From: Thermoplasmatota archaeon
Lineage (GTDB): Archaea; Thermoplasmatota; Penumbrarchaeia; Penumbrarchaeales; Penumbrarchaeaceae
NCBI GenBank assembly: GCA_016928095.1
Contig: JAFGLL010000051.1
Coordinates: forward strand, 11,779-75,778
Direction: 5' to 3'
Length of the DNA stretch: 64,000 nt
Under the pieces are notes generated by a model. It saw nothing but the letters and a program-made list of their open reading frames with translations. It was not told the DNA's origin and searched no databases. Of this stretch, positions 13,670 through 52,264 are shown in pieces. Numbering within the stretch: the first letter of the stretch is position 1; each line of letters starts with the position of its first letter. The translations under genes and the position numbers were made by a program.

Positions 13670-13785
13670 AAACACCCGAAGAACTTCAAAACTGTTTTTT
13701 TTTAAATCGCTTAAAAGACAATGAATAGAAAAATATTATCTACTAACGTACCATTCGTGAATTAAATGGCCATCTGGTGGTTATC

Positions 13786-14754
13786 ATGAGCTTCGACGAA
13801 AAAATCGAGTTCGATATGGATGATGAAGGTGGTAGAAGAAGAGAAAGGCCGAGATCATCATCATCAAAAAAGAAGGTACTATCAAAAAAGAGATCCAAAC
13901 CTAAGACTACTAAAACATCAGAAAAGAAGAAAGAAGAAGTGGAAGAAGTAGAAGAAGAAGAACGCCCCCCCAAGAAAAAAGCAACACCTTCAATAACAGC
14001 CAAGAGAAATCCGGTACCCGATGGAATAAAGAGAAAACTGGCCATGGACCTTCGCGAGATGAAGAACCTTAAAAAACAACTCAAAGAACTTGAAGATGAG
14101 AGAGGATCTTACGAGCATGAAATGGAACTTCTCGAGGATGAAATTGACAGTGTTCGCTCCGAGAAGGAAAGATTGGAAGATGAGGTCAATAACAAGATAG
14201 CACTTGTCGGGGCTTATGAGAAAAAACTCAACAGGAACCAGAAGGATTTCGATAACATCAGGAAGAGGATGCAATCAGATGTGGACCGACAGGTCAAACA
14301 GGATCAAAAAAAGGTCCTCATCGGGCTAATAGAGATAATCGATAATCTGGACAGAGCGATCCTGGAGGGAAGGAAGTATGATTACAAACCCGAGGTCTCC
14401 TTGATCATGGATGGCCTCGATTCCATAAAAAAGAACATGTTGAAGGTCCTCTCGGACACAAATGTTGAAATGTTGGACCCGATCAATGTTGCCTTCGATC
14501 CACACTTCCATGAAGCTATCGACATGGTGACGGATACTTCTGTACCGGACAAAACTGTGATAAGTGTACAATCCAAGGGGTATGTCATGGGAGATATTGT
14601 CCTCAGACCTGCGAAAGTAAATGTATCACGGGGTGGCGAACCCCGCAAAAAGGTGTCGAAAAAGAAGGAAGAAGGTTCGGAAGAAGAGGAGATACCCGAT
14701 CTTGACGAGGTCGAGGAGGAGCTTGAGGACATAGAGGAGCTGGATTCGGAGTGA
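13786..14754 (+). CDS. grpE: Nucleotide exchange factor GrpE with long charged N-terminal extension
   Basis: DFDNIRKR; IDNLDRAI; FDPHFHEAI; KGYVMGDIVLRPAKVNVS; first gene before dnaK. Confidence 0.9.
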   Translation: MSFDEKIEFDMDDEGGRRRERPRSSSSKKKVLSKKRSKPKTTKTSEKKKEEVEEVEEEERPPKKKATPSITAKRNPVPDGIKRKLAMDLREMKNLKKQLKELEDERGSYEHEMELLEDEIDSVRSEKERLEDEVNNKIALVGAYEKKLNRNQKDFDNIRKRMQSDVDRQVKQDQKKVLIGLIEIIDNLDRAILEGRKYDYKPEVSLIMDGLDSIKKNMLKVLSDTNVEMLDPINVAFDPHFHEAIDMVTDTSVPDKTVISVQSKGYVMGDIVLRPAKVNVSRGGEPRKKVSKKKEEGSEEEEIPDLDEVEEELEDIEELDSE

Positions 14755-14972: not shown

Positions 14973-17174
14973 ATGGCAAAGGTTATCGGAATAGATCTTG
15001 GGACAACTTATTCGGCAATGGCAGTTCTGGAGGGGGGGGAGCCTGTGGTCATACCCACGGCGGAAGGAACCCGGACGATGCCTTCCGTTGTGGCCTTTAC
15101 GGAAGATGGTGAGATACTTGTCGGTCAGGTTGCAAAAAGGCAAGCCGTGACCAATCCCGAGAGGACAATATCCTCGATCAAGAGAAAGATGGGGACAAAA
15201 TACAAGGTAAAGGTCGATGAAAAGGTGTACACTCCCCAGGAGATCTCGGCCATGATCCTGAGGAAGCTTAAAAAAGATGCCGAGGAATACCTGGGAGAGG
15301 AGATCGATAAGGCTGTAATTACAGTTCCCGCTTATTTTGAGGACCCTCAGAGGCAGGCGACAAGGGATGCAGGGAGGATCGCCGGACTGGAGGTCCTGAG
15401 AATAATCAACGAACCCACGGCAGCATCACTGGCATACGGTCTCGACAAGCAGGACATCGAGCAGACAATCCTTGTGTTCGACCTGGGCGGTGGAACGTTC
15501 GATGTGTCTATCCTGGATATTGGCGAGGGTGTATTCGAGGTCAAGGCCACATCAGGTAACAATCTGCTTGGTGGTGATGATTTCGATGCTCGGATCATGG
15601 ACTGGATAATAGAAAAGTTCGATGAAGATTGCGGCATTTCACTTCGTGAGGACAGGAATGCGATGCAGAGATTGAAAGAAGCTGCGGAAAAGGCAAAGAT
15701 CGAACTTTCCTCTAGACTCGACACGAACATCAACCTGCCCTATATCGCAGCCGACAGTGATGGTCCGAAACATATCGATTATACCCTGACAAGGGCAAAA
15801 TATGAATCCCTCACGGAGGATCTAATCGATGCCACAAAAGGTCCGACAAAGAGATCATTAAAGGATTCTGGCCTGACTCCAAAGGAGATCCAGCAGATAC
15901 TCCTGGTAGGTGGGATGACAAGGACACCTGCAGTACAGAATTTTATTAAGGAGTTCTTCGGAAAGGCACCCAATAAGGGTATCAACCCGGACGAATGCGT
16001 TGCGATCGGAGCGGCCATTCAGGGTGGAGTTCTGACCGGTGAGGTCAAGGATGTCCTGCTTCTCGACGTAACACCCTTATCCCTTGGCGTAGAGACTGTT
16101 GGTGGACTTACCTCTAAGCTCATTCCCAGGAATACAACGATACCCTGCAGAAAGAACCAGATCTTCTCGACCGCGCAGGACAACCAGACATCGGTGGAGA
16201 TACATGTTGTACAGGGAGAGAGGGAGATGTCCACTGACAATAAGTCCCTTGGAAAATTCCATCTCATCGGGATACCCCCCGCTCCTAGAGGCGTGCCACA
16301 GATCGAGGTTACCTTCGATATAGATGCGAACGGTATAGTAAACGTTTCAGCGAAGGACCTCGCTACTGGCAAGGAACAGAAGATCACCATACAACCTTCC
16401 TCCGGTGTGACAGAAGATGAGGTTTCCAGGATGATAGAGGACGCTGACAAATATGAGAAGATAGACAAGAAGAAGAAGAAACTTGCAGAACTTCGGAACC
16501 AGGCGGATGCCATGATCTATTCCACGGAGAAAGCGATCGTGGAGCTTGAGGATAAACTGGACAAGAATAAGATGAAAGAGACCAAGATCGCACTGAAAGA
16601 GCTCAAGGTCCAGATGGAGGGTAAGAACGTCAAGGAACTGAAGGAGGCCATAGACATTCTTACAGAAAAGTCCCAGAGCTTGTTCGCCGATGCATACTCC
16701 GGTATCCGTGGGGATGATGAAGAAGGCTATGAACCGATCACGATAAAGTGTCCGAAGTGCAAGAAACCGATAAAGATAACCTCGCCCAAGAGGCCATTGA
16801 AGATCACCTGTCCGCACTGCGGGGCAAAGGGAACTATAAAGGGATCCCCACCCAAGAAGAAACCGGTAGAGGATCGGAAAGATGAGTCGAAAAAAGCTCC
16901 CAGGGAAGAGGAACCCAAGAAGAAGGTCAAGAAATCCTCCTCGGAAGAAAAGGAAGAGACAGAGGAGAAGAAACCTAAAAAGAAGGTGAAGAAACCTTCG
17001 GAGGATGAGGAGGAGGAAGAGGAGCCCAGGAAGAAGGGGAAAAAGGAACCGAAATATGAGCCCGAACTCATTGATTGTCCCAAATGCGGGAATGAGATCG
17101 AGATCGATTCTCCTGAAAGACCCCTAAGGGTTCAGTGCCCTGAATGCGGCGCAAAGTTGAAGATCACGGAGTGA
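14973..17174 (+). CDS. dnaK: Molecular chaperone DnaK (Hsp70) with C-terminal double zinc-ribbon extension
   Basis: GIDLGTT; TVPAYF; INEPTAA; [10 protein letters not shown]; NPDECVA; [11 protein letters not shown]; [15 protein letters not shown]. Confidence 0.98.
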
Positions 17175-17181
17175 TCGGAAA

Positions 17182-17212
17182 GGAGGGTCCGATCGGACCC
17201 TCTCTTTTTTTT
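17182..17212 (+). terminator. Hairpin plus T-tract terminator after dnaK
   Basis: GAGGGTCC-GATC-GGACCCTC stem followed by TC and T8. Confidence 0.75.
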
Positions 17213-17279
17213 CTTTGGAGTTGGATAGAATAAAATAGGATAACGATATAATGACCATTCCCTCCTGAAAGGTGATATA

Positions 17280-18323
17280 TTGGCTGATGATCATTACACC
17301 ATACTAGGGATCGAGGACGATGCCACCCAGGATGATGTAAAAAAAGCCTACAGGAAACTTGCCAAGAACCTCCATCCTGACCTGAACAAGGACGACTCTA
17401 CCGGTGCGGCCGATAGGTTTAAAAAGGTCAAGGAAGCGTACGAGATACTTTCAAACCCTTTGAAGAGAGAAAAGTATGACCTTGAGCTCATGAGATCTGG
17501 TTCAGCATCAAATCAATCTCCTGTACCACAGTCTGTTGGTTTTGTATATACAGGTCCGCCCCTTGCACCTCAGAGAGGCTCGGATGTCAAGCTTGTAATG
17601 AAGATACTCTTTCAGGAATCCTTCTCGGGTGTAAAGAAAGGTGTCGATGTCAAGATGCCTGTTAGATGTACCAATTGTGGTGGCTCAGGGTCTGCTCCGG
17701 GTACACCGGTCTCGACATGCCCCACCTGTAGAGGCTCAGGAGCATTACTTCAGCCTGTGCAGACCCCTCAAGGCTATATCAATCAGAGGATCATATGTAC
17801 CACATGCAACGGCAGGGGAATACTGATGCAGCAGTTCTGCCAGCGCTGCTCGGGTGTCGGACTGGTGAACGGTTCTGATAATGTGATCCTCTCTCTTCCT
17901 CCAGGGGTAGAAGACGGTGCAATAATTAAGATAAATGGTAAAGGAGGATACGGCCTTGGGAATGGTCCGAGAGGGGATCTTTTAATAACAGTGAACGTCG
18001 AGGAGCTTCCGAACATGAAGCGGGTCGATAATGACCTGTATATCGAAGAGTCGATCTCGCTCCCCAAAGCTGTCTTTGGGGGGAAACAGAGGGTCAACAC
18101 TCTGGAAGGAAGAAGGACCCTCAGGATACCTTCCTTGACAAAGAGCAGGACAGAGTTCCTCATAGAGAGCGAAGGTTTCCCTGACCCGGTGACCGGTGAA
18201 CACGGTGATCTCTACGTGGTCGTTTACATTGACCCGCCGGAGGACCTGACCGAGGGTGCCAAAAAAGCCCTCAAGAAGTATGCTCTGGAAATGGGCGAAG
18301 ACCTCAATGACCTGGGTCTCTAG
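17280..18323 (+). CDS. dnaJ: Chaperone DnaJ (Hsp40)
   Basis: J-domain with HPD; four CxxCxGxG repeats (CTNCGGSG, CPTCRGSG, CTTCNGRG, CQRCSGVG); GDL motifs in the C-terminal domains; TTG start. Confidence 0.93.
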   Translation: MADDHYTILGIEDDATQDDVKKAYRKLAKNLHPDLNKDDSTGAADRFKKVKEAYEILSNPLKREKYDLELMRSGSASNQSPVPQSVGFVYTGPPLAPQRGSDVKLVMKILFQESFSGVKKGVDVKMPVRCTNCGGSGSAPGTPVSTCPTCRGSGALLQPVQTPQGYINQRIICTTCNGRGILMQQFCQRCSGVGLVNGSDNVILSLPPGVEDGAIIKINGKGGYGLGNGPRGDLLITVNVEELPNMKRVDNDLYIEESISLPKAVFGGKQRVNTLEGRRTLRIPSLTKSRTEFLIESEGFPDPVTGEHGDLYVVVYIDPPEDLTEGAKKALKKYALEMGEDLNDLGL

Positions 18324-18347: not shown

Positions 18348-19148
18348 ATGGGCGCTCTTCTCACAAATCGGTTCATGATGATCACGCTTGTTGGTATCGG
18401 TCATGTTTTCTCCATAAAGGAGGCTGTCAAGTACATCGTATTGACCAGAAGACCCGATGCGGTATGTCTTGAGCTGGACAGACTGAGGTTCGACGCACTT
18501 GAGACCGGTACCAGAGAGCAGGGTGAAGCTCCATTTCTCTTCAGGAGGCTCCAGAGGATCTATGACAAGGCCGCTGAAACCCAGGGAGCCCAGGTAGGCG
18601 AGGAGATGCTAGGAGCGGCTGAGGCTGCCGGTGAAATAGGGATCCCTCATTATTTCATTGATATAGAGGCCTCTCCCATGGTGATGAACATTTTCCAGAA
18701 GCTTTCAATGTCGGAGAAGCTCAAATTGTTCGGATCTGTCATCGGTGCGTCCATCATCCCGAAAAAGACCCTGGAAGAGGGCATCAAGGAGATAGGAGAG
18801 GACCCTGATAAGTACATGGAGCAGTTCGAGAACTATTTTCCAACCCTGAAGAGAGATATTGTTGATTACAGGGACCGCTATATGTCAAAACGATTGATCG
18901 AAATATCAAAGAAGCACGAACATATCCTTGCAGTGGTCGGACAGGGCCATATAAGGGGAATGATCGATCTCCTTGAACCTTACGGGGCCCATGTCATCAA
19001 TCTCAAGGAGGTTCAGGAAATTGCCAGAGGTTTGGTGGACGGCTCGATCAAGATGCCTGTACCAAAGGGTGGAAATATCTATGAGGGATCGAACAACGAT
19101 GTGCATTTCGGATTCAATGTAGAGATGGAGACATCGGAGGAGATATGA
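18348..19148 (+). CDS. TraB/GumN (TIKI-like) domain protein
   Basis: VGIGHV; AVCLELDRLR; GEEMLGAAEAA; IVDYRDRYM; VVGQGHIRGM. Confidence 0.8.
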   Translation: MGALLTNRFMMITLVGIGHVFSIKEAVKYIVLTRRPDAVCLELDRLRFDALETGTREQGEAPFLFRRLQRIYDKAAETQGAQVGEEMLGAAEAAGEIGIPHYFIDIEASPMVMNIFQKLSMSEKLKLFGSVIGASIIPKKTLEEGIKEIGEDPDKYMEQFENYFPTLKRDIVDYRDRYMSKRLIEISKKHEHILAVVGQGHIRGMIDLLEPYGAHVINLKEVQEIARGLVDGSIKMPVPKGGNIYEGSNNDVHFGFNVEMETSEEI

Positions 19149-43232: not shown

Positions 43233-43247
43233 AGAGAGGTGAAAAGA

Positions 43248-44414
43248 ATGGGTATAATCGATAAGATGAAAGGGGGAAAGCCCAGCGTCGTGGGAGGGTC
43301 CACCTATCAGTGGGAGGACAAGGGAGAGGACGTGATATGGAAGATCCCCAAGAACATTGTATGGAACGACAACATAGTCGTGAAGGAAGATGAATATGCA
43401 ATATTCTTCAGGGACGGAAAGGCTCTCACGGTCTTCGACAGACCCGGGAGGTACGCACTGACCACCCAGAACATAATGACCTGGAAGCTTGCCGACAAGT
43501 TCCAGGACCTGACCGGCATCCGCCAGATCGGAGAGATATACTACCTCCAGAGGCGGGAGATGAGGGGCAAGTTCGGAACCAAGGAGCCCATAGCCTTCAG
43601 GGATTCCGATTTCGGGATGGTAAGGATACGCGTCTTCGGACAGTATTCCTACAAAGTGAAGGACCCGCTCCTCTTCATAACACAGTTCATAGGGACAGAG
43701 AGTAAAGAGACCACCGGACAGATAGTGGACTGGTTCAGGGACCAGATAGTGATGTCCCTCAACGACATCCTCGGGGAGCTCAAGAGAGACAAGAACATGG
43801 CCATCATAGACGTTCCGGCATATCTGGAAGAAATGGAGCAGATACTCCTTGCAAGGATAAAGGACGACACGGAGAGGTACGGTGTGGAGATATCGAAGAT
43901 CACCGGTCTTAACTTCAACCTGCCGGAAAAGGTCCAGGAAGCCATAGACAAACGCGGAGAGCTGCAGGCCCTCGGCGTGAACTACATGCAGTACCAGGCC
44001 GGACAGGCCATGGTAAAGGCCGCCGAGAACGAGGGAGCCGGAGGGAACATGGCGGGTATGGGTGTCGGTCTCGGAGCGGGTCTTGGTATGGGTTACGGGA
44101 TGACAGGTGCCGTGGGAGCGGGAATGGACCCCAACGCACAGAACCCGTGGGGTTCCCAGCAGCCCGGTGTCGCAGCGGGTAAGAAATGTCCCAAGTGCGG
44201 AACCGATGTTCCTGCCACGGCAAAGTTCTGCAATATATGCGGGGAGAACCTCTCCGGGGAGAAGCTTTGCATAAAATGCGGACAGCCTGTAGCCCAGGGT
44301 ACAAAATTCTGCTCCAACTGCGGCTCAAAGCAGACAATGGAATGTCCCAGCTGCAAGCAAGAGCTTTCATCGGGAGCGAAGTTCTGTCCGAACTGCGGTT
44401 TCAAGATGGGATAG
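43248..44414 (+). CDS. SPFH/band-7 domain protein (YdjI-like) with C-terminal zinc ribbons
   Basis: IVVKEDEYAIFFRDGK; PGRYALTT; KFGTKEPI; RVFGQYS; AENEGAGG; G-rich GLGAGLGMG; six CxxC pairs; GAGGTG SD. Confidence 0.88.
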   Translation: MGIIDKMKGGKPSVVGGSTYQWEDKGEDVIWKIPKNIVWNDNIVVKEDEYAIFFRDGKALTVFDRPGRYALTTQNIMTWKLADKFQDLTGIRQIGEIYYLQRREMRGKFGTKEPIAFRDSDFGMVRIRVFGQYSYKVKDPLLFITQFIGTESKETTGQIVDWFRDQIVMSLNDILGELKRDKNMAIIDVPAYLEEMEQILLARIKDDTERYGVEISKITGLNFNLPEKVQEAIDKRGELQALGVNYMQYQAGQAMVKAAENEGAGGNMAGMGVGLGAGLGMGYGMTGAVGAGMDPNAQNPWGSQQPGVAAGKKCPKCGTDVPATAKFCNICGENLSGEKLCIKCGQPVAQGTKFCSNCGSKQTMECPSCKQELSSGAKFCPNCGFKMG

Positions 44415-46781: not shown

Positions 46782-48425
46782 TCAGTGGGATAGCTTCCCT
46801 TTCTTTCCGCATTTTGGACAGGTGATGATGATAGGTCTCTTTGCGCTCTTGACCAGGATCTTCTCACTGCATCCCTTGCATTTCACTATCTTTGGTTTGT
46901 AATCGTCCTGGGAAGGTTCGGGTTCTTCTTCCTTTTCTTCCTCTGGAGGCTCCTCATCCAGATCTTCCTTCCCATGATCTCTTATGGGCTTCCTGATCAT
47001 GAACTGATTATCTTCATCTTCTTCCTTTTCCAAGATCGGGGACCTTCTCTTCTTCGGAACTGATATCTCCTCTTCCTCTTCATCTTCCTCGATGATCTTG
47101 ACCTTTTTCTTCATGGGTCTCTCGGACCTCTGCGACGGTATATCCTTTTCAAGCTCATAGATCCTGTCATTGAGGAGACGGATCTTCTTTTCATGGTCCT
47201 CAACTGTTATGTAACCGTCCTTTTTTCTCTCGAAGTCGTTCAATTCACCTTTCAGGGATGATTTCTCATTTTCAATGGCCCTGAGCTCTTCCTCTATCTC
47301 TTCCTTCATCTCGATTGACCTTGCTCGTTCCTTCTCGAAGAGCTTCTTCTCGTTCTCGATGTCCCTTCTGGCTGTCATGATCTCTTCTCGTTTCTTGTCG
47401 ATCTCTATCTGTTCCTTGATCAACGAATCCTTTTCGGATTTGAAGGCCTTGACCTCCTCCTTCAGCTCTATCTGTCTGTTCTCCAGTTTCTTCTCCCAGG
47501 ATTCAAGCTTTTCTTTGCCTTTCTCATATTCCCTGAACTCTATCCTGAACTTGTTGTATCTCTCCTGGAAATCATCCCATTCCCTCTCGTGTGATTTCCT
47601 GGTAGCATTGAATTCCTCGAAGTCCTGATCGAAAAGCTCTCTCTTTCGATCTATCGAATCGCTTTCCTTGTCAAGGAGTATTCTTTCCTTTTTCAGCTTT
47701 GCCTCTCTTTCTTTAAGTTCATCTTCGAACTTCTTGAATTCCTGCTTCTCCTCGAAGAACCTGTTCTCCCTATCTTCCTGTTCGACCTTCTCCCTTTCAA
47801 TGTTCTCCTTTTCCCTGACGATGTCGGACTTCTGTGAATCGAAGGTTGCCTTCTCCAACTCGATATCCCTCTTCATCTTCAGAAACTCGTCCCTTTCCTC
47901 TTCAAGGGATTTGATCTCCCTGAGGATGTCCTCCCTCTTGTCCATCAATTCCTTACGTTCCCTGCTGAGGCGCGCTTCCCTGGATTCAAGATCTTCCTTG
48001 TCGGCCTGGATGGAGATAAGGTTAGCCTTCACGAACTTCTCCATGAGCTCCAGCACTTTCGTTTCCTCGTCCACAAGGTCTCTTCTCTTTCTATTGACGG
48101 AATCATAGATGCTCTCGATCTCATCTTTCTTACCAAGGACGGCCTTCAACTCCTGGTCGAGGCGATACTGGTCAAGGTCCATCTCCTTTTTTCCGATGGG
48201 TTGCGATCTAACCTCAACAGCCTCCTCATCGATCTCCTCGATATCCACCTCCTCATGCATCTCTTCTGGTTCCGGTTCTTCCTCCACAACGACCGCTTTT
48301 TTCTTCGGGACGACGATCTCTTCTTCATCGTCCTCGAACTCGATCTTGGGAGCCATCTTCCTGCCCTTCTTTCTGATTTTTACATCATCATCGTCGGACC
48401 AGTCCACTTTGGATCTCTTAGGCAT
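46782..48425 (-). CDS. Long charged coiled-coil protein with C-terminal zinc ribbon
   Basis: About 330 aa of E/K/R-rich heptad-like sequence; no Walker motifs; ends CKGC..SAKRP..CPKCG; GGGGTG SD before ATG 48425. Confidence 0.8.
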   Translation of the reverse strand: MPKRSKVDWSDDDDVKIRKKGRKMAPKIEFEDDEEEIVVPKKKAVVVEEEPEPEEMHEEVDIEEIDEEAVEVRSQPIGKKEMDLDQYRLDQELKAVLGKKDEIESIYDSVNRKRRDLVDEETKVLELMEKFVKANLISIQADKEDLESREARLSRERKELMDKREDILREIKSLEEERDEFLKMKRDIELEKATFDSQKSDIVREKENIEREKVEQEDRENRFFEEKQEFKKFEDELKEREAKLKKERILLDKESDSIDRKRELFDQDFEEFNATRKSHEREWDDFQERYNKFRIEFREYEKGKEKLESWEKKLENRQIELKEEVKAFKSEKDSLIKEQIEIDKKREEIMTARRDIENEKKLFEKERARSIEMKEEIEEELRAIENEKSSLKGELNDFERKKDGYITVEDHEKKIRLLNDRIYELEKDIPSQRSERPMKKKVKIIEEDEEEEEISVPKKRRSPILEKEEDEDNQFMIRKPIRDHGKEDLDEEPPEEEKEEEPEPSQDDYKPKIVKCKGCSEKILVKSAKRPIIITCPKCGKKGKLSH

Positions 48426-48607
48426 GATATTCACCCCTTTATGAACGGAACGCACTATGCTATTCAAACCTTCATATAACAAGGATGTTATATATCTTTT
48501 TTCAGTGAATAACATCCATTGAGGATCGAGATATCGTTACACTTATCATCTTATTCCACCTATGGCTTCACCGATGTCCGATAATAAGGAAAAGGTTTTC
48601 ATGTCAT

Positions 48608-51600
48608 GTGACATGTGGTGAACGAGGAGTGTTGGACCGCTTGGCAGAATATCTGAACGGGCGTTATACCGATCCGAATGGTTTGGGCCGAAATATCGGG
48701 TTAGATCCCCGGGAAGGGATAGTCGTAGAATCCTCTCTGAGGCCCCTTATTGATGAAAAGAGCGGTTATGTCGTCCTGGGAAGAAGCAGCTCCGCTCACA
48801 AGAAATGGAGAAGGAAGGGATTGCTTCAGATCGGTGCTGTTGGGGAGTTGCAGGAAACCGGTGATAACCTTTTCGGAAGGGAGGTTTACATTGATGCAGC
48901 CTTCCCGCACATCATGTTCATCTGCGGTAAGAGAGGAAGCGGAAAATCCTATACCCTTGGTATCTTTGCAGAAGAGCTCATCAGGTCAGCCATAGGTGTC
49001 GGTGTCATACTCGTCGACCCTATCGGTATCTTCTGGTCCCTGAAGACGGAGAACACTTCCAGGTCCGAGAGAAAAGCACTTGAGAAATGGGGTTTGAACC
49101 CTACCTCGTTCCCTGAGGTAAAGGTCCTTGCGCCCGGAAACGACATCGGCATGCTGCCCGCCAATTGTGATGGACCCTATACCATAGGGGTCAGTGAGAT
49201 GACGGCAGAGGATTGGTGTCAGGTCTTTGACATGGACAGGTTCAAGACCCAGGGACTTCTTGTCGGGACCGCCATAGATCAGGTGAGATCGGGATACAAG
49301 GCCCTGATAGATGAAGCAATGATCGATATTCCATCCAGACCCCAACTTTTCTCTATAGGGGATATCATCCGATGTATGGAATTCTCATCGACGATCATCA
49401 GCAAGACAGGGGGATACAACCCGCAGACCAGGAGATCGGTGATCGCCAGGTTCACCGCTGCCGCGGGCTGGGGAATATTCAGCATCGAAGGCACACCACT
49501 CAGAGAACTCACATCACCGAACAGGGTGACCGTTCTTGATGTCAGCGATACGAACCTGGGAGATTCAAAACGAAGCCTCATCACCGGGATCATCGCCCGA
49601 AAGGTTCTCGAGGGAAGGATCAGATCGGCAAGGAAAGAGGAACATCACGGTTTCGATGAGACGGACCCCGAAATGATCCCACTGACATGGCTCCTGATAG
49701 ATGAAGCACATATCATCCTTCCACACAACAAACAGACACCTGCTTCGGAAGCTCTGATAGAATATGCCAAACAGGGCAGGAGACCGGGATGCGCCATGAT
49801 CCTTGCAACCCAGAGACCCGCCTCAACATCCGATGAGATCCTTTCACAGGTGGACATTCTTCTTGGCCACAACCTCGCCCTGGAGGACGACATGTCGGCC
49901 TTGAGGAGGAGGGTCCCGGCAAAACTCCCCCAGGAGTTCGCTGTTTCGGATTTCATCAGGGGTATACCCGTCGGGACCGCTATCGTCGCTGACCAGAAGA
50001 CACAGCAGAGGTCTTTCCTTGTTAGATTGAGACCACGATTATCCCATCATGCAGGGAGTTCCGCAATGCCAAAAGCATTTCAGGAGAAGAAAGGCAGAAT
50101 GAAGAGACCGATCCCTCTCACGGGAACTTATATTCCCAGGAATATGCCATCCGTCCTTGATCCTACCCCGGTCCCACGTTCTATCGATGACATAGGCGAA
50201 ATCGAAGAGATAGATGAAGATCCTTCTGTATCTGTTTCTCCTGTTTCGGAGGTGATCGCAGATGTCCCGGAAGATCTGGATATCATACCCGAAGGTCCTG
50301 TACCGGACCTTCCTTGGGGTTCGACGATCATTCTCAGGGACAGGTCGAAAGAGGACCTGGAAATGTTTTTGGGGAACGTTGAAGGTGCAACCGGGTTCAT
50401 GCTACTATCTGCCGATGATCCATCAAGGTTAAGTGTTCCATCAGGACCCAAGAGGGTGGACCGCTGGTTCTCGGAAACCGATTCATGTCCGATCCGGGAC
50501 CCAAACGGTCCGGAGATGGCTCTTTCCGCTATAGAGAACACCATCGGAGAAACAAGCTCATGGGTCGTGGTTATCGATCATGTCGAGAACATGTTCAAGG
50601 AACACCCCAAGGAAAAGATCAGGGGTATGTTGAAAGCACTGCATGACAGGGTATTCGAGGGGAAGCATCTTCTGGTGATCAGATGGGATGGTGAAGACCG
50701 GGAAGGAATGCTTCAAGGGATCTTTTCCGTCAAGGATGGGGTCGAAAAAGGACCGGGGCCGAGCATGAGGGACCGAAAGGAAGGCCTCATGCCCACCAAG
50801 ATCGTCCAAAACGGCTCATTGAGGGATGAAGAGCTCAGATGGATGTGCAACGTCATGGGACTTCCAACGGATGGCAACGATACAGAACTGCTGAACAGGT
50901 TGCTGGAATCAGGAAAGGGTATCCTTAACGAAAGCAGCGGGGATAATGTCAATATCGACCTGTTAAAACAGGTGATGCATGAGTCGACAAGGGCCAGAGA
51001 GGAGAACAATAGACTTCTTCAGAGGATCAAGGAGCTCGAATCGGAGATAGGTGTGGATACCCCCGCAGAACCTTTGAGAGAAATGCAAGTTGCTGAAAAA
51101 GGTATCAAGAAGGATAGGAAACTCGTGGTTGTTTGGGAAGATGAGGAGCAGCAACAGGGAAAGGTCGAGCAGTTCATCCAGGAAGTGGAAGACCTGAAGA
51201 GTGAGATAGAAAACGGGCCGATCGAAGGCTCTCCCGCAGAATTCAGTGACACCCTCTTTTCAAAATTGATGAACAAACTCGATGAGGAAAAGCTTGAGAA
51301 CCGAGAACGCCTGAAAAGGCTTGAGGAAATTCTCCAGAACGAGATGGATTCCTTCAGGGATGAGCTCGAATCTCAGAGAAAGAAAATGACAGCATCACGC
51401 AGGATACCAAAGCTCAGGGTCATCAAGGAAAAGCCTCCCCATATGGAACACACTGATGTGAAGAACAGGGTCCTGAAAAGGAAGGTCCTGAAAAGGGGGG
51501 AGGAAGTGGCGGCGGTATCCCCAAGAATAGAGACAAACCAAGCACTGGATATCGGGAAAAGGAACCTGAAAAGAAGTATCTTCAGGGGGCCAAAGGAATC

Positions 51601-52264
51601 CATTGATGATATCATACCCTATAACATATTGCTTTATCGATTTCTTGTAGGTTACAGAGGAGGATTGAGAAGGTCCGACAGGGAATCCGATGTGTTCATT
51701 GATTCCATTACGGGAGAGATCGTGGAACAGGGTAGGACCGGGCTCAGGAGGAGCGAGGGCCTGCCATGCCTCCTCAGGATGACCGATCTGGAGATGGACG
51801 TTTTCGCAGTATTGACCACATCACCGAAAGAGCCGTCATGGATATCCAAAGCTTCCGGCATAGACGTTGCTCGGGTTAAAAGGTCTCTGTCATCTCTCGA
51901 GAAAAAAGGACTTGTAAGGAGGGTCCGAATAGAAGGTAACCTTGACCTTTTTTCGATAGGGGACAATATCAAGATCCCTTCAAGACCTTGGGTGAGGGAC
52001 CATGGATTTGAACCAGCTTTCGTGATATGTAAAGGTGAGAGGATACTGACCCCGAGGATAACGGTTAATGATGCACGGACCGTGATCGAGAGATTATCTC
52101 GCCAGATAGATATCATAGAACAGGATACCGTTAGATATCCGATCCATGTGATAAAGATCAGGGGTGAGGGTCGAACTAGATATATCGCCGTAGATGGATT
52201 CGGGGGCAGGTTGGACAGAAGGATCTCCAATATCCTCAAAAACATCATCGAGGGCGGCAATTAG
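48608..52264 (+). CDS. HerA/FtsK-superfamily ATPase (DUF87/COG0433-like) fused to DUF835-like, SAP-like, coiled-coil and wHTH modules
   Basis: GKRGSGKSYT (Walker A); LVDPIG; LLIDEAH (Walker B); ILATQRP; VVIDHVENMF; EELRWMCNVMGLPTDGNDTELLNRLL; KRSLSSLEKKGLV. Confidence 0.85.
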   Translation: MTCGERGVLDRLAEYLNGRYTDPNGLGRNIGLDPREGIVVESSLRPLIDEKSGYVVLGRSSSAHKKWRRKGLLQIGAVGELQETGDNLFGREVYIDAAFPHIMFICGKRGSGKSYTLGIFAEELIRSAIGVGVILVDPIGIFWSLKTENTSRSERKALEKWGLNPTSFPEVKVLAPGNDIGMLPANCDGPYTIGVSEMTAEDWCQVFDMDRFKTQGLLVGTAIDQVRSGYKALIDEAMIDIPSRPQLFSIGDIIRCMEFSSTIISKTGGYNPQTRRSVIARFTAAAGWGIFSIEGTPLRELTSPNRVTVLDVSDTNLGDSKRSLITGIIARKVLEGRIRSARKEEHHGFDETDPEMIPLTWLLIDEAHIILPHNKQTPASEALIEYAKQGRRPGCAMILATQRPASTSDEILSQVDILLGHNLALEDDMSALRRRVPAKLPQEFAVSDFIRGIPVGTAIVADQKTQQRSFLVRLRPRLSHHAGSSAMPKAFQEKKGRMKRPIPLTGTYIPRNMPSVLDPTPVPRSIDDIGEIEEIDEDPSVSVSPVSEVIADVPEDLDIIPEGPVPDLPWGSTIILRDRSKEDLEMFLGNVEGATGFMLLSADDPSRLSVPSGPKRVDRWFSETDSCPIRDPNGPEMALSAIENTIGETSSWVVVIDHVENMFKEHPKEKIRGMLKALHDRVFEGKHLLVIRWDGEDREGMLQGIFSVKDGVEKGPGPSMRDRKEGLMPTKIVQNGSLRDEELRWMCNVMGLPTDGNDTELLNRLLESGKGILNESSGDNVNIDLLKQVMHESTRAREENNRLLQRIKELESEIGVDTPAEPLREMQVAEKGIKKDRKLVVVWEDEEQQQGKVEQFIQEVEDLKSEIENGPIEGSPAEFSDTLFSKLMNKLDEEKLENRERLKRLEEILQNEMDSFRDELESQRKKMTASRRIPKLRVIKEKPPHMEHTDVKNRVLKRKVLKRGEEVAAVSPRIETNQALDIGKRNLKRSIFRGPKESIDDIIPYNILLYRFLVGYRGGLRRSDRESDVFIDSITGEIVEQGRTGLRRSEGLPCLLRMTDLEMDVFAVLTTSPKEPSWISKASGIDVARVKRSLSSLEKKGLVRRVRIEGNLDLFSIGDNIKIPSRPWVRDHGFEPAFVICKGERILTPRITVNDARTVIERLSRQIDIIEQDTVRYPIHVIKIRGEGRTRYIAVDGFGGRLDRRISNILKNIIEGGN

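Follow-up and report, generated by a model that had tools for sequence, protein, structure and literature searches.

The stretch of DNA studied here comprises 64,000 nucleotides from a Thermoplasmatota archaeon (GenBank assembly GCA_016928095.1, contig JAFGLL010000051.1, positions 11,779 to 75,778 of the forward strand) and is called the window below. It contains the chaperone genes grpE, dnaK and dnaJ, among which the dnaK gene (coding sequence 14973..17174, + strand) encodes an Hsp70 that ends in two zinc-ribbon units separated by a charged linker. Few architectures in biology are as conserved as that of Hsp70 and, to our knowledge, the textbook picture of a housekeeping DnaK includes no folded domains fused to its C-terminus. 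An Hsp70 with C-terminal zinc ribbons appears to be new, and the family of the underlying module appears to be unnamed.

The dnaK gene and its tail

The dnaK product has 733 aa when read from ATG, and is recognized by both Pfam and NCBIfam. The mechanical open reading frame (ORF) begins at GTG 14964, ends at 17174 on the + strand and is 736 aa long. The true start is probably ATG 14973, which has GGAGG 9 nt upstream and is also the position where the database copy of 733 aa (P0006) begins. An exact-sequence lookup with the 736-aa ORF was empty, because the recorded gene begins at the ATG. Note that the amino acid positions of the DnaK parts are given in the numbering of the 736-aa ORF.

The DnaK core, composed of the nucleotide-binding domain (NBD), the substrate-binding domain (SBD) and the helical lid, occupies 14982..16697 (+), as delimited by Pfam HSP70, NCBIfam and the lid helices of an AlphaFold2 (AF2) model. 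Pfam HSP70 (PF00012) matches aa 7-578 over profile positions 1-598 of 599 with 785.5 bits, the NCBIfam DnaK equivalogs NF001413 and TIGR02350 score over their cutoffs (919.7 vs. 648 and 907.1 vs. 822.55, respectively), and the signature nucleotide-binding motifs of DnaK can all be read in the translation. As judged from its sequence, the product is a complete canonical DnaK, and the intact core and the conserved grpE-dnaK-dnaJ operon suggest that the tail has been added to a working chaperone. Although some Thermoplasmatota have more than one Hsp70 (PMC12874294), the equivalog assignment and the conserved operon make it likely that this DnaK is the main Hsp70 of the genome.

Behind the lid, an acidic junction (16698..16733, +) ends in a Y-E-P lead-in to the first unit, with Y58 and P60 invariant in the tail alignment A4. 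Unit 1 (16734..16844, +; aa 591-627) and unit 2 (17061..17171, +; aa 700-736) are both 37 aa long and 54% identical, with net charges of +10 and -3, respectively, and the stop codon follows unit 2 directly. Between them lies a K/E/P-rich polyampholyte linker of 72 aa (16845..17060, +; aa 628-699), which contains 24 K, 20 E and 9 P, has almost no hydrophobic residues and is predicted to be disordered. In place of the short Cys-free disordered tail, this DnaK has a tail of 158 aa with two four-cysteine (C4) units. Scored with a profile built from the units of other subclades only, unit 1 reaches 58.8 bits and unit 2 50.6 bits. The strict C4 pattern occurs at only three places in the six frames of the window, each of them C-terminal in a long ORF. 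The two-unit tail is not a product of chance.

Across 29 units, C6, C9, C26 and C29 are invariant and form two CxxC knuckles. Besides the four Cys, the R-P pair five residues ahead of the second knuckle and the G following the second knuckle are also invariant, while I/V at the strand positions, a Y-x-P lead-in and a G-x-K-G-T-L-K ending are preferred. The consensus of the module can be written as Y-x-P-[IV]-x-I-x-C-P-K-C-x3-I-x-V-x-S-x-x-R-P-[LI]-K-I-x-C-P-x-C-G-x-K-G-T-L-K. With the unit alignment, AF2 gave a four-strand ribbon with a predicted local distance difference test (pLDDT) score of 77.8. With the tail alignment, it gave two lid helices, unit 1, a disordered segment and unit 2, where the pLDDT is below 50 at tail residues 101-159 and 83-88 for unit 2. 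The four modelled ribbon strands, with the CxxC knuckles at the hairpin turns (pLDDT 78-88), are consistent with a zinc ribbon fold.

An earlier note on this DNA, made from the letters alone, had described a DnaK with intact motifs, lying within grpE-dnaK-dnaJ and carrying two C-terminal zinc ribbons split by a charged linker. The equivalog scores, the motif reading and the flanking ORFs agree with the first part of this description, while the exact translation, the profile scores and the 72-aa K/E/P-rich linker bear out the second.

Spread and conservation among Thermoplasmatota

A full-length search returned about 40 clusters at 90% identity (P0006-P0045, 690-924 aa) that rank ahead of all canonical DnaKs, and all but two truncated entries among them have C-terminal ribbons, that is, about 38 clusters. 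The next 80 matches are bacterial-type DnaKs of 573-697 aa with 67-70% identity (Clostridia/Thermoanaerobacter). The C4 pattern was present in the tail of none of these 80 canonical DnaKs, in line with the premise of the earlier note that a canonical DnaK has no zinc-binding motif. It should be noted that a tail-only word-indexed search returned five short proteins of metagenomic origin and none of the DnaK relatives, and a full-length query is required.

At the level of genomes, a survey of the DnaK C-terminus, which had been proposed as a check, found the fusion in at least 21 species-representative genomes, all labelled Thermoplasmatota, Thermoplasmata or Thermoplasmatales according to their record titles, from which the taxonomy was taken. 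These include a 3.58-Mb chromosome (L028) and the Guaymas metagenome-assembled genome (MAG) ex4484_6 (L013). The genome scan used an alignment of 8 units, since the set of 29 was too diverse, and two peptide patterns; consequently, the counts are lower bounds.

Among the DnaK relatives, the number of units varies from 1 to 4, counting those with degenerate first knuckles (C-x-C, C-x4-C), and the linker, about 70 aa here, ranges from 30 to 200 aa. The last unit forms the exact C-terminus in every full-length relative with two or more clean units. In the subclade of the window unit 2 is acidic and LysW-like, and the terminal residue is Glu in every case (KITE, KIKE, KVLE, KIEE, KVVE), while every other subclade ends in a basic unit (…GTLKK). 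In the tails of P0038 and P0041, units are fused or truncated in register (…CPKCKKCGAKGTL…, and …KRPLKIECPKCGKKGTLK repeated without the first knuckle, respectively). Such units, together with the variable unit number, fit unequal recombination between repeats.

Among the 16 proteins of this subclade, the NBD has a mean pairwise identity of 91.3%, the beta part of the SBD (SBD-beta) 93.7% and the lid 74.7%. In the tail the values are 97.9% (unit 1), 38.4% (linker) and 68.6% (unit 2), and no other part of the chaperone is as constrained as unit 1. Purifying selection acts on all residues of unit 1, not only on the four Cys, as expected of a specific interface. In the linker, the K/E/P composition and the blocky charge are preserved rather than the sequence, as expected of a tether. 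Since the fusion is clade-wide and the first ribbon is more conserved than the ATPase domain, the tail must matter to the cells.

Database records call the fusion proteins only 'molecular chaperone DnaK'. No description of a zinc-ribbon fusion to Hsp70 or DnaK was found in the annotation or in the 8.3 million papers and preprints searched, this literature contained nothing on point about zinc ribbons on archaeal cytoplasmic tails, and a 2026 survey of the archaeal DnaK-DnaJ-GrpE (KJE) system makes no mention of zinc or of the C-terminus. The earlier note had proposed a previously undescribed Hsp70 architecture and had named its being already widespread and annotated as grounds for giving the proposal up. 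The architecture proves to be widespread rather than singular, as it extends clade-wide in Thermoplasmatota, but no paper or annotation that describes it was found.

The same module on other proteins

Then, does the module occur outside DnaK? A 37-position profile of the 29 units, of the kind that had been suggested for such a search, was run against 1.84 billion representative proteins clustered at 50% identity. Since clustering at this level folds the DnaKs with zinc ribbons into ordinary DnaK clusters, the library was used for non-DnaK carriers only. With an E-value of at most 1e-3 the profile matched 1,243 proteins, among which 142 reach E<=1e-10 and 11 reach E<=1e-30. The ribbon is therefore a feature of this Hsp70, as had been noted, but not an Hsp70-specific one, since it is also found on about 1,240 representative proteins and on a second protein encoded in the window.

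The carriers range from 71 to 3,418 aa in length, and many contain 2-7 copies of the module. In 106 of the 147 new top matches the last unit lies no more than 12 residues from the C-terminus, commonly with the ending C-x2-C-G-x2-G-x-L-[KR], where G at +1, L at +6 and K/R at +7 are found in 70, 86 and 77 of these 106 proteins, respectively. A transmembrane (TM) helix upstream of the units, with none downstream, is present in 89 of the 142 carriers that have a strict-pattern unit. The 15 residues after the helix contain on average 3.07 K+R compared with 1.00 in those before it, and the excess lies after the helix in 72 carriers and before it in 8 (p=4e-12). The helix upstream only and the K+R bias after it indicate, at the level of sequence, that in most carriers the module is cytoplasmic, on the tails of unrelated surface and membrane proteins, both single-pass and multi-pass. 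The layout of signal peptide, ectodomain and single TM helix is seen in 30 carriers, the only recurrent non-ribbon domains are the Ig-like folds PKD, Big_7 and FixG_C, and the remaining carriers are soluble, often K/E-rich or coiled-coil. All named carriers are 'hypothetical protein' entries from Thermoplasmata or Euryarchaeota MAGs. In addition, the free-standing metagenomic proteins P0004, P0139 and P0154 consist of a unit, a charged linker of 120-180 aa and a second unit, which is the layout of the DnaK tail.

Most units are basic. The net charge of the first DnaK units is +2 to +11 and that of the units of other carriers is +4.6 on average, while 18 of the 88 DnaK units and 35 of the 262 other units are neutral or acidic. 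Generic binding of polyanions was considered as a full explanation of the module and rejected, because a minority of the units is acidic.

Fold and family placement

The module belongs to the fold class of C4 zinc ribbons with CPxCG-type knuckles, and no curated family captures it. Taken alone, unit 1 stays under every Pfam cutoff (best Zn_ribbon_4, 26.9), and so does the unit of the coiled-coil carrier in the window (best DUF5817, 20.4). For Zn_ribbon_4 (PF13717, MJ0042-type), which is the commonest family among the carriers (67 of 114), the single units score 26.9 and 23.6 against a cutoff of 30.3, and the whole tail reaches 33.6 only by summing units; TIGR02098 gives 32.9 vs. 20.9 for the whole tail. 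Unit 2 alone passes Zn_ribbon_LysW (PF21344; 39.4 vs. 27), for which unit 1 is not in the top list, while the LysW equivalog TIGR01206 remains below its cutoff (31.6 vs. 53.2). Also below cutoff are the Ruc/FmdB family Zn_ribbon_8 (PF09723; 24.3, 22.6 and 16.9 vs. 34.4; TIGR02605, E=0.073) and the ZitP-type Zn_ribbon_5 (PF13719; unit 2, 22.3 vs. 29.3), the latter being matched by 25 of 114 carriers.

The closest solved chain by sequence is LysW (5k2m_E, E=7e-6), followed by weaker matches to eS27 and the Rpo12/RpoP ribbons, which cover the knuckles only, and to the zinc ribbon of AgmX/GltJ (7zok). Among the best Foldseek superpositions of the 37-residue model, whose TM-scores describe geometry only, are LysW (TMq 0.78, root-mean-square deviation 1.9 A), the cytosolic RING-like domains of TMEM55B (0.79-0.80), IBR domains and ZitP (0.61). 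A LysW-like carrier role was also considered and rejected, as there is neither a carrier tail nor a lys/arg gene context.

Neighbouring genes and other carriers in the window

The gene upstream of dnaK is grpE (13777..14754, +; 325 aa; Pfam GrpE, 129 bits), which is upstream of dnaK in the relatives too. Its GrpE domain (aa 117-284) is preceded by a K/E/S-rich N-terminal extension of about 115 aa (aa 1-116). It is followed by an acidic C-terminal tail (aa 285-325), and the composition of the extension and the tail is like that of the DnaK linker. Conservation among the relatives is 46-71% for GrpE vs. 90-96% for DnaK. Downstream, in the relatives as well, lies dnaJ (17280..18323, +; 347 aa; Pfam DnaJ, DnaJ_CXXCXGXG and DnaJ_C), with a J domain, a CXXCXGXG zinc centre and a C-terminal domain. 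Directly 3' of dnaJ is a gene of the TraB/PrgY/GumN family (18348..19148, +), which may belong to the chaperone operon. The order grpE-dnaK-dnaJ followed by the TraB/PrgY/GumN-family gene is kept wherever the locus of a relative is long enough, except that the last homologue is inverted in L016 and was not detected in L022, L023 and L028, and that grpE has no match at the L028 locus.

The non-DnaK carrier of the window is a coiled-coil-like K/E-rich protein of 577 aa (46782..48515, - strand), which ends in …DYKPKIVKCKGCSEKILVKSAKRPIIITCPKCGKKGKLSH and has its unit at nt 46785-46895 (42.4 bits, or 39.7 bits with the non-self profile). Coiled-coil proteins with a unit are found in relatives as well (L021, P0257). 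Beside this gene, in divergent orientation, lies a gene for a HerA-type (DUF87) ATPase of 1,218 aa with a C-terminal TrmB-like winged helix (48608..52264, +). Another window gene (43239..44414, +) encodes an SPFH/Band-7 (stomatin/flotillin-like) protein with a C-terminal DZR double zinc ribbon and Zn_ribbon_3. Its zinc module differs in kind, and it is the second window protein of membrane-scaffold type with terminal zinc ribbons.

Two small families with a single terminal unit were also noted in genomes that contain the DnaK fusion. One is a conserved protein of about 125 aa in DnaK-fusion genomes, without known family, which contains …DYFPDFEYRFFPI…GIQGPVYRPSG… and ends in …CPxCGKKGKLE (L032, L033, L036-L038, L040-L042, L045 and L053). 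The other has an N-terminal 'INLDEGTIQVAGEWL…' domain, with a poly-Glu run in the archaeal copies, and is present in archaea (L025-L027, L039) and in Desulfobacterales MAGs (L018, L019, L029-L031, L035). Pfam has no family for the coiled-coil carrier or for either of the two small families. The clear Desulfobacterales homologues suggest that a module-bearing gene has been transferred between sediment archaea and bacteria.

Possible function of the tail

The complete DnaK, the selection on unit 1, the C-terminal placement and the presence of the same module on unrelated cytoplasmic tails together point to docking. With a confidence slightly better than even, we interpret the DnaK tail as a portable module for docking, by which DnaK would be tethered to a partner common to the tails of the other carriers. 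In such a mechanism, two zinc-stabilised ribbons would hang off the DnaK C-terminus via a flexible polyampholyte linker, as members of a family of docking modules that is specific to the lineage and portable between the C-termini of different proteins. Every carrier would dock on one common cytoplasmic partner, probably negatively charged and membrane-proximal, for which FtsZ or another scaffold or cytoskeletal protein and the inner face of the membrane are candidates. Docking would concentrate DnaK at the site, while the long linker would let the ATPase and substrate-binding core reach clients. An acidic target, that is, a scaffold, the inner membrane face or nucleic acid, is suggested by the basic character of most units, and a membrane-proximal protein scaffold is favoured because most carriers are already membrane-anchored. 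Neither ftsZ nor another obvious partner was found among the scanned window genes near either carrier. The earlier note had spoken of a targeting or redox-sensing module. Targeting fits the carrier distribution and the conservation of unit 1, whereas redox sensing has for it a generic likeness to Ruc and Hsp33, which combine a C4 centre with disorder, and leaves the module on non-chaperone membrane proteins unexplained.

Several points weigh against docking. Zinc binding by the units is read from the C4 pattern only, and the docking function and the partner are likewise postulated from sequence. Since the units are mostly basic, unspecific binding of RNA, DNA or anionic lipid is conceivable. 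DUF7093, the family of the archaeal FtsZ1 anchor CdpC, is not among the best 25 of up to 113 Pfam families for the units and the tail. The 37-residue model has no Foldseek match in the PDB at E<=1e-3, although non-significance is expected for 37 residues. Finally, the organisms are uncultured, and the one metatranscriptome run from the same study gave no coverage of the region.

Alternatively, the basic ribbons and lysine blocks could bind rRNA, mRNA or DNA and make this a ribosome- or nucleoid-associated Hsp70, which would be analogous to yeast Ssb and would make up for the absent trigger factor in archaea. The charge of unit 1 and the basic first unit of every DnaK relative agree with this idea, and so do the weak profile matches to the ribosomal eS27 and RNA polymerase Rpo12/RpoP ribbons and the JGI label 'predicted RNA-binding Zn-ribbon protein involved in translation (DUF1610)' on two free-standing relatives. 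However, the eS27 and Rpo12 matches are short, knuckle-centred and below the family cutoffs, the neutral or acidic units counted above include unit 2 here, and the same module lies on cytoplasmic tails in 89 of 142 carriers. Consequently, we regard a ribosome or nucleic-acid tether as unlikely.

Somewhat less probable still is a co-chaperone or cis-regulatory tail, in which the ribbons would bind DnaJ, GrpE, another chaperone or protease, or the domains of DnaK itself, as the lineage counterpart of the eukaryotic EEVD or the bacterial DnaK C-terminal tail. The Hsp70 C-terminus does host partner-docking motifs elsewhere (EEVD, for tetratricopeptide repeat (TPR) proteins or class B J-proteins), the gene order of the operon is conserved in the relatives with few exceptions, and the 115-aa K/E-rich extension of GrpE is unusual. 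Yet the Pfam scan revealed no ribbon-binding feature in DnaJ or GrpE, and the modules on membrane tails would be accounted for only if the membrane proteins, too, recruited this co-chaperone.

A redox or zinc switch has, in our estimate, a low probability. In this case oxidation would free the zinc and unfold the ribbons, so that the disordered tail would act as an ATP-independent holdase or otherwise gate DnaK. A C4 ribbon with a long disordered region is indeed the layout of Mycobacterium tuberculosis Ruc, and two of the sub-threshold scores with Zn_ribbon_8/FmdB (24.3 and 22.6 bits vs. 34.4) point in the same direction. But the Ruc/FmdB thresholds are not reached, the DNA comes from a sediment metagenome, unit 1 is conserved at all its residues and not merely at the cysteines, the K/E polyampholyte linker with almost no hydrophobic residues would be a poor client-binding surface, and the module is found on hundreds of non-chaperone membrane and structural proteins.

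As for the assembly, which the earlier note had wished to see verified near 16700, the G+C content is even across the lid-tail junction, and a sediment-metagenome run contains the region. From the SBD through both ribbons and the linker into dnaJ (16159-17500), an independent Logan contig of 5,450 nt, with a depth of about 11.7, agrees with the window with zero differences, and no chimera was seen. The sole contig break, at 16159-16188, falls inside the conserved SBD. There the assembly branches into a short variant path with a loose end of 45 nt, which differs in sequence and probably comes from a related DnaK of another strain or species that co-occurs in this sediment. Free-standing proteins made up of such units and linkers are known (P0002, P0004, P0139), which implies that a fusion took place in the course of evolution, but an assembly chimera or read-through that joined dnaK to a separate zinc-ribbon gene has a practically negligible probability and is ruled out by the independent contig, the even composition and the recurrence of the in-frame architecture in dozens of independent assemblies (about 38 clusters, 21 genomes from unrelated studies).

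If the tail is a docking module, its role may extend beyond DnaK. By analogy with the terminal ribbon of CdpC in haloarchaea, a proteome-wide address tag can be imagined in Thermoplasmatota, by which hundreds of surface tails, coiled-coil proteins and DnaK would plug into one cytoplasmic hub (e.g., FtsZ or another polymer of the cytoskeleton or membrane skeleton); we put this forward tentatively, as a doubtful extension. If true, it would mean spatially organised proteostasis and envelope anchoring with a resident tethered Hsp70, it would point to an unknown intracellular scaffold in archaea, and this would be the first prokaryotic Hsp70 hard-wired to a location. The multivalency of 2-7 units on charged linkers could then drive a condensate-like layer under the membrane, and the 37-aa unit would be a small, easily synthesised handle for finding the partner. 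The DnaK tail also leads to a larger unnamed phenomenon, as a portable cytoplasmic zinc ribbon ends roughly a thousand protein families of uncultured archaea, mostly on the tails of surface proteins, and a dedicated profile would improve the annotation of thousands of 'hypothetical' proteins as well as of these DnaKs.

Likeness to known Hsp70 and zinc-ribbon systems

Compared with canonical DnaK, the present protein has the same NBD, SBD, lid and operon, with 67-70% identity to the DnaKs of Clostridia/Thermoanaerobacter. The difference lies behind the lid, where the canonical protein has a short Cys-free disordered tail and the present ones have 1-4 zinc ribbons on long charged linkers. The use of the Hsp70 C-terminus as an address or docking element is known from the eukaryotic EEVD and the ribosome-bound Ssb. 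In those cases, however, a short linear motif or a basic patch takes the place of a folded zinc module, and neither is known to be shared with the tails of membrane proteins.

LysW/ArgW is the best sequence match and its ribbon is among the best superpositions, with unit 2 passing PF21344. In LysW, the ribbon serves for docking and presents a tail to several enzymes. However, LysW has an EDWGE carrier tail and a lysX/Z/Y context, while the DnaK here ends in ...KLKITE beside grpE and dnaJ.

Ruc and Hsp33 share with the present tail a C4 zinc centre, a disordered region and a functional link to DnaK. For example, Ruc (Rv0991c) of M. tuberculosis is a DnaK-binding protein with a genetic link to hsp70 genes, and oxidation activates it (PMC7448276). 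The ribbon family is another one, though, and the present module is also found on non-chaperones and its linker is purely charged.

The likeness to ZitP and GltJ lies in a C4 ribbon of about 40 aa that membrane proteins have on the cytoplasmic side and that serves as a localization signal through binding of a scaffold or a GTPase. The 43-aa zinc ribbon of Caulobacter ZitP binds PopZ and acts as a portable signal for polar localization (PMC5182065), and that of Myxococcus GltJ/AgmX binds MglA-GTP (PMC11135422); the ZitP structure (2nb9) superposes with the TMq of 0.61 given above. These ribbons are N-terminal, single-copy and bacterial, whereas the present units are C-terminal, follow the TM helix and, compared with ZitP, have their own R-P and G-x-K-G-T-L-K signature.

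CdpC of Haloferax volcanii (HVO_0399, DUF7093) is the membrane anchor of the FtsZ1 ring, and its C-terminal zinc ribbon is preceded by a disordered linker of 240 residues. Binding of this ribbon to FtsZ1 depends on zinc and has a dissociation constant (KD) of about 0.1 uM (bioRxiv 10.64898/2026.07.16.738847). Distant multi-ribbon relatives of CdpC have been reported in all Thermoplasmatota classes in the same work. The shared layout is a ribbon, a long disordered linker and a C4 ribbon at the extreme C-terminus, with CPxCG-type knuckles, and the free-standing P0004 and P0139 of the present family show the same ribbon-linker-ribbon arrangement as CdpC. The comparison is one of layout. The N-terminal ribbon of CdpC is of C3H type with an amphipathic helix, and the present device is fused to a chaperone. 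Nevertheless, ZitP, GltJ and CdpC provide precedents for docking by zinc ribbons of about 40 aa.

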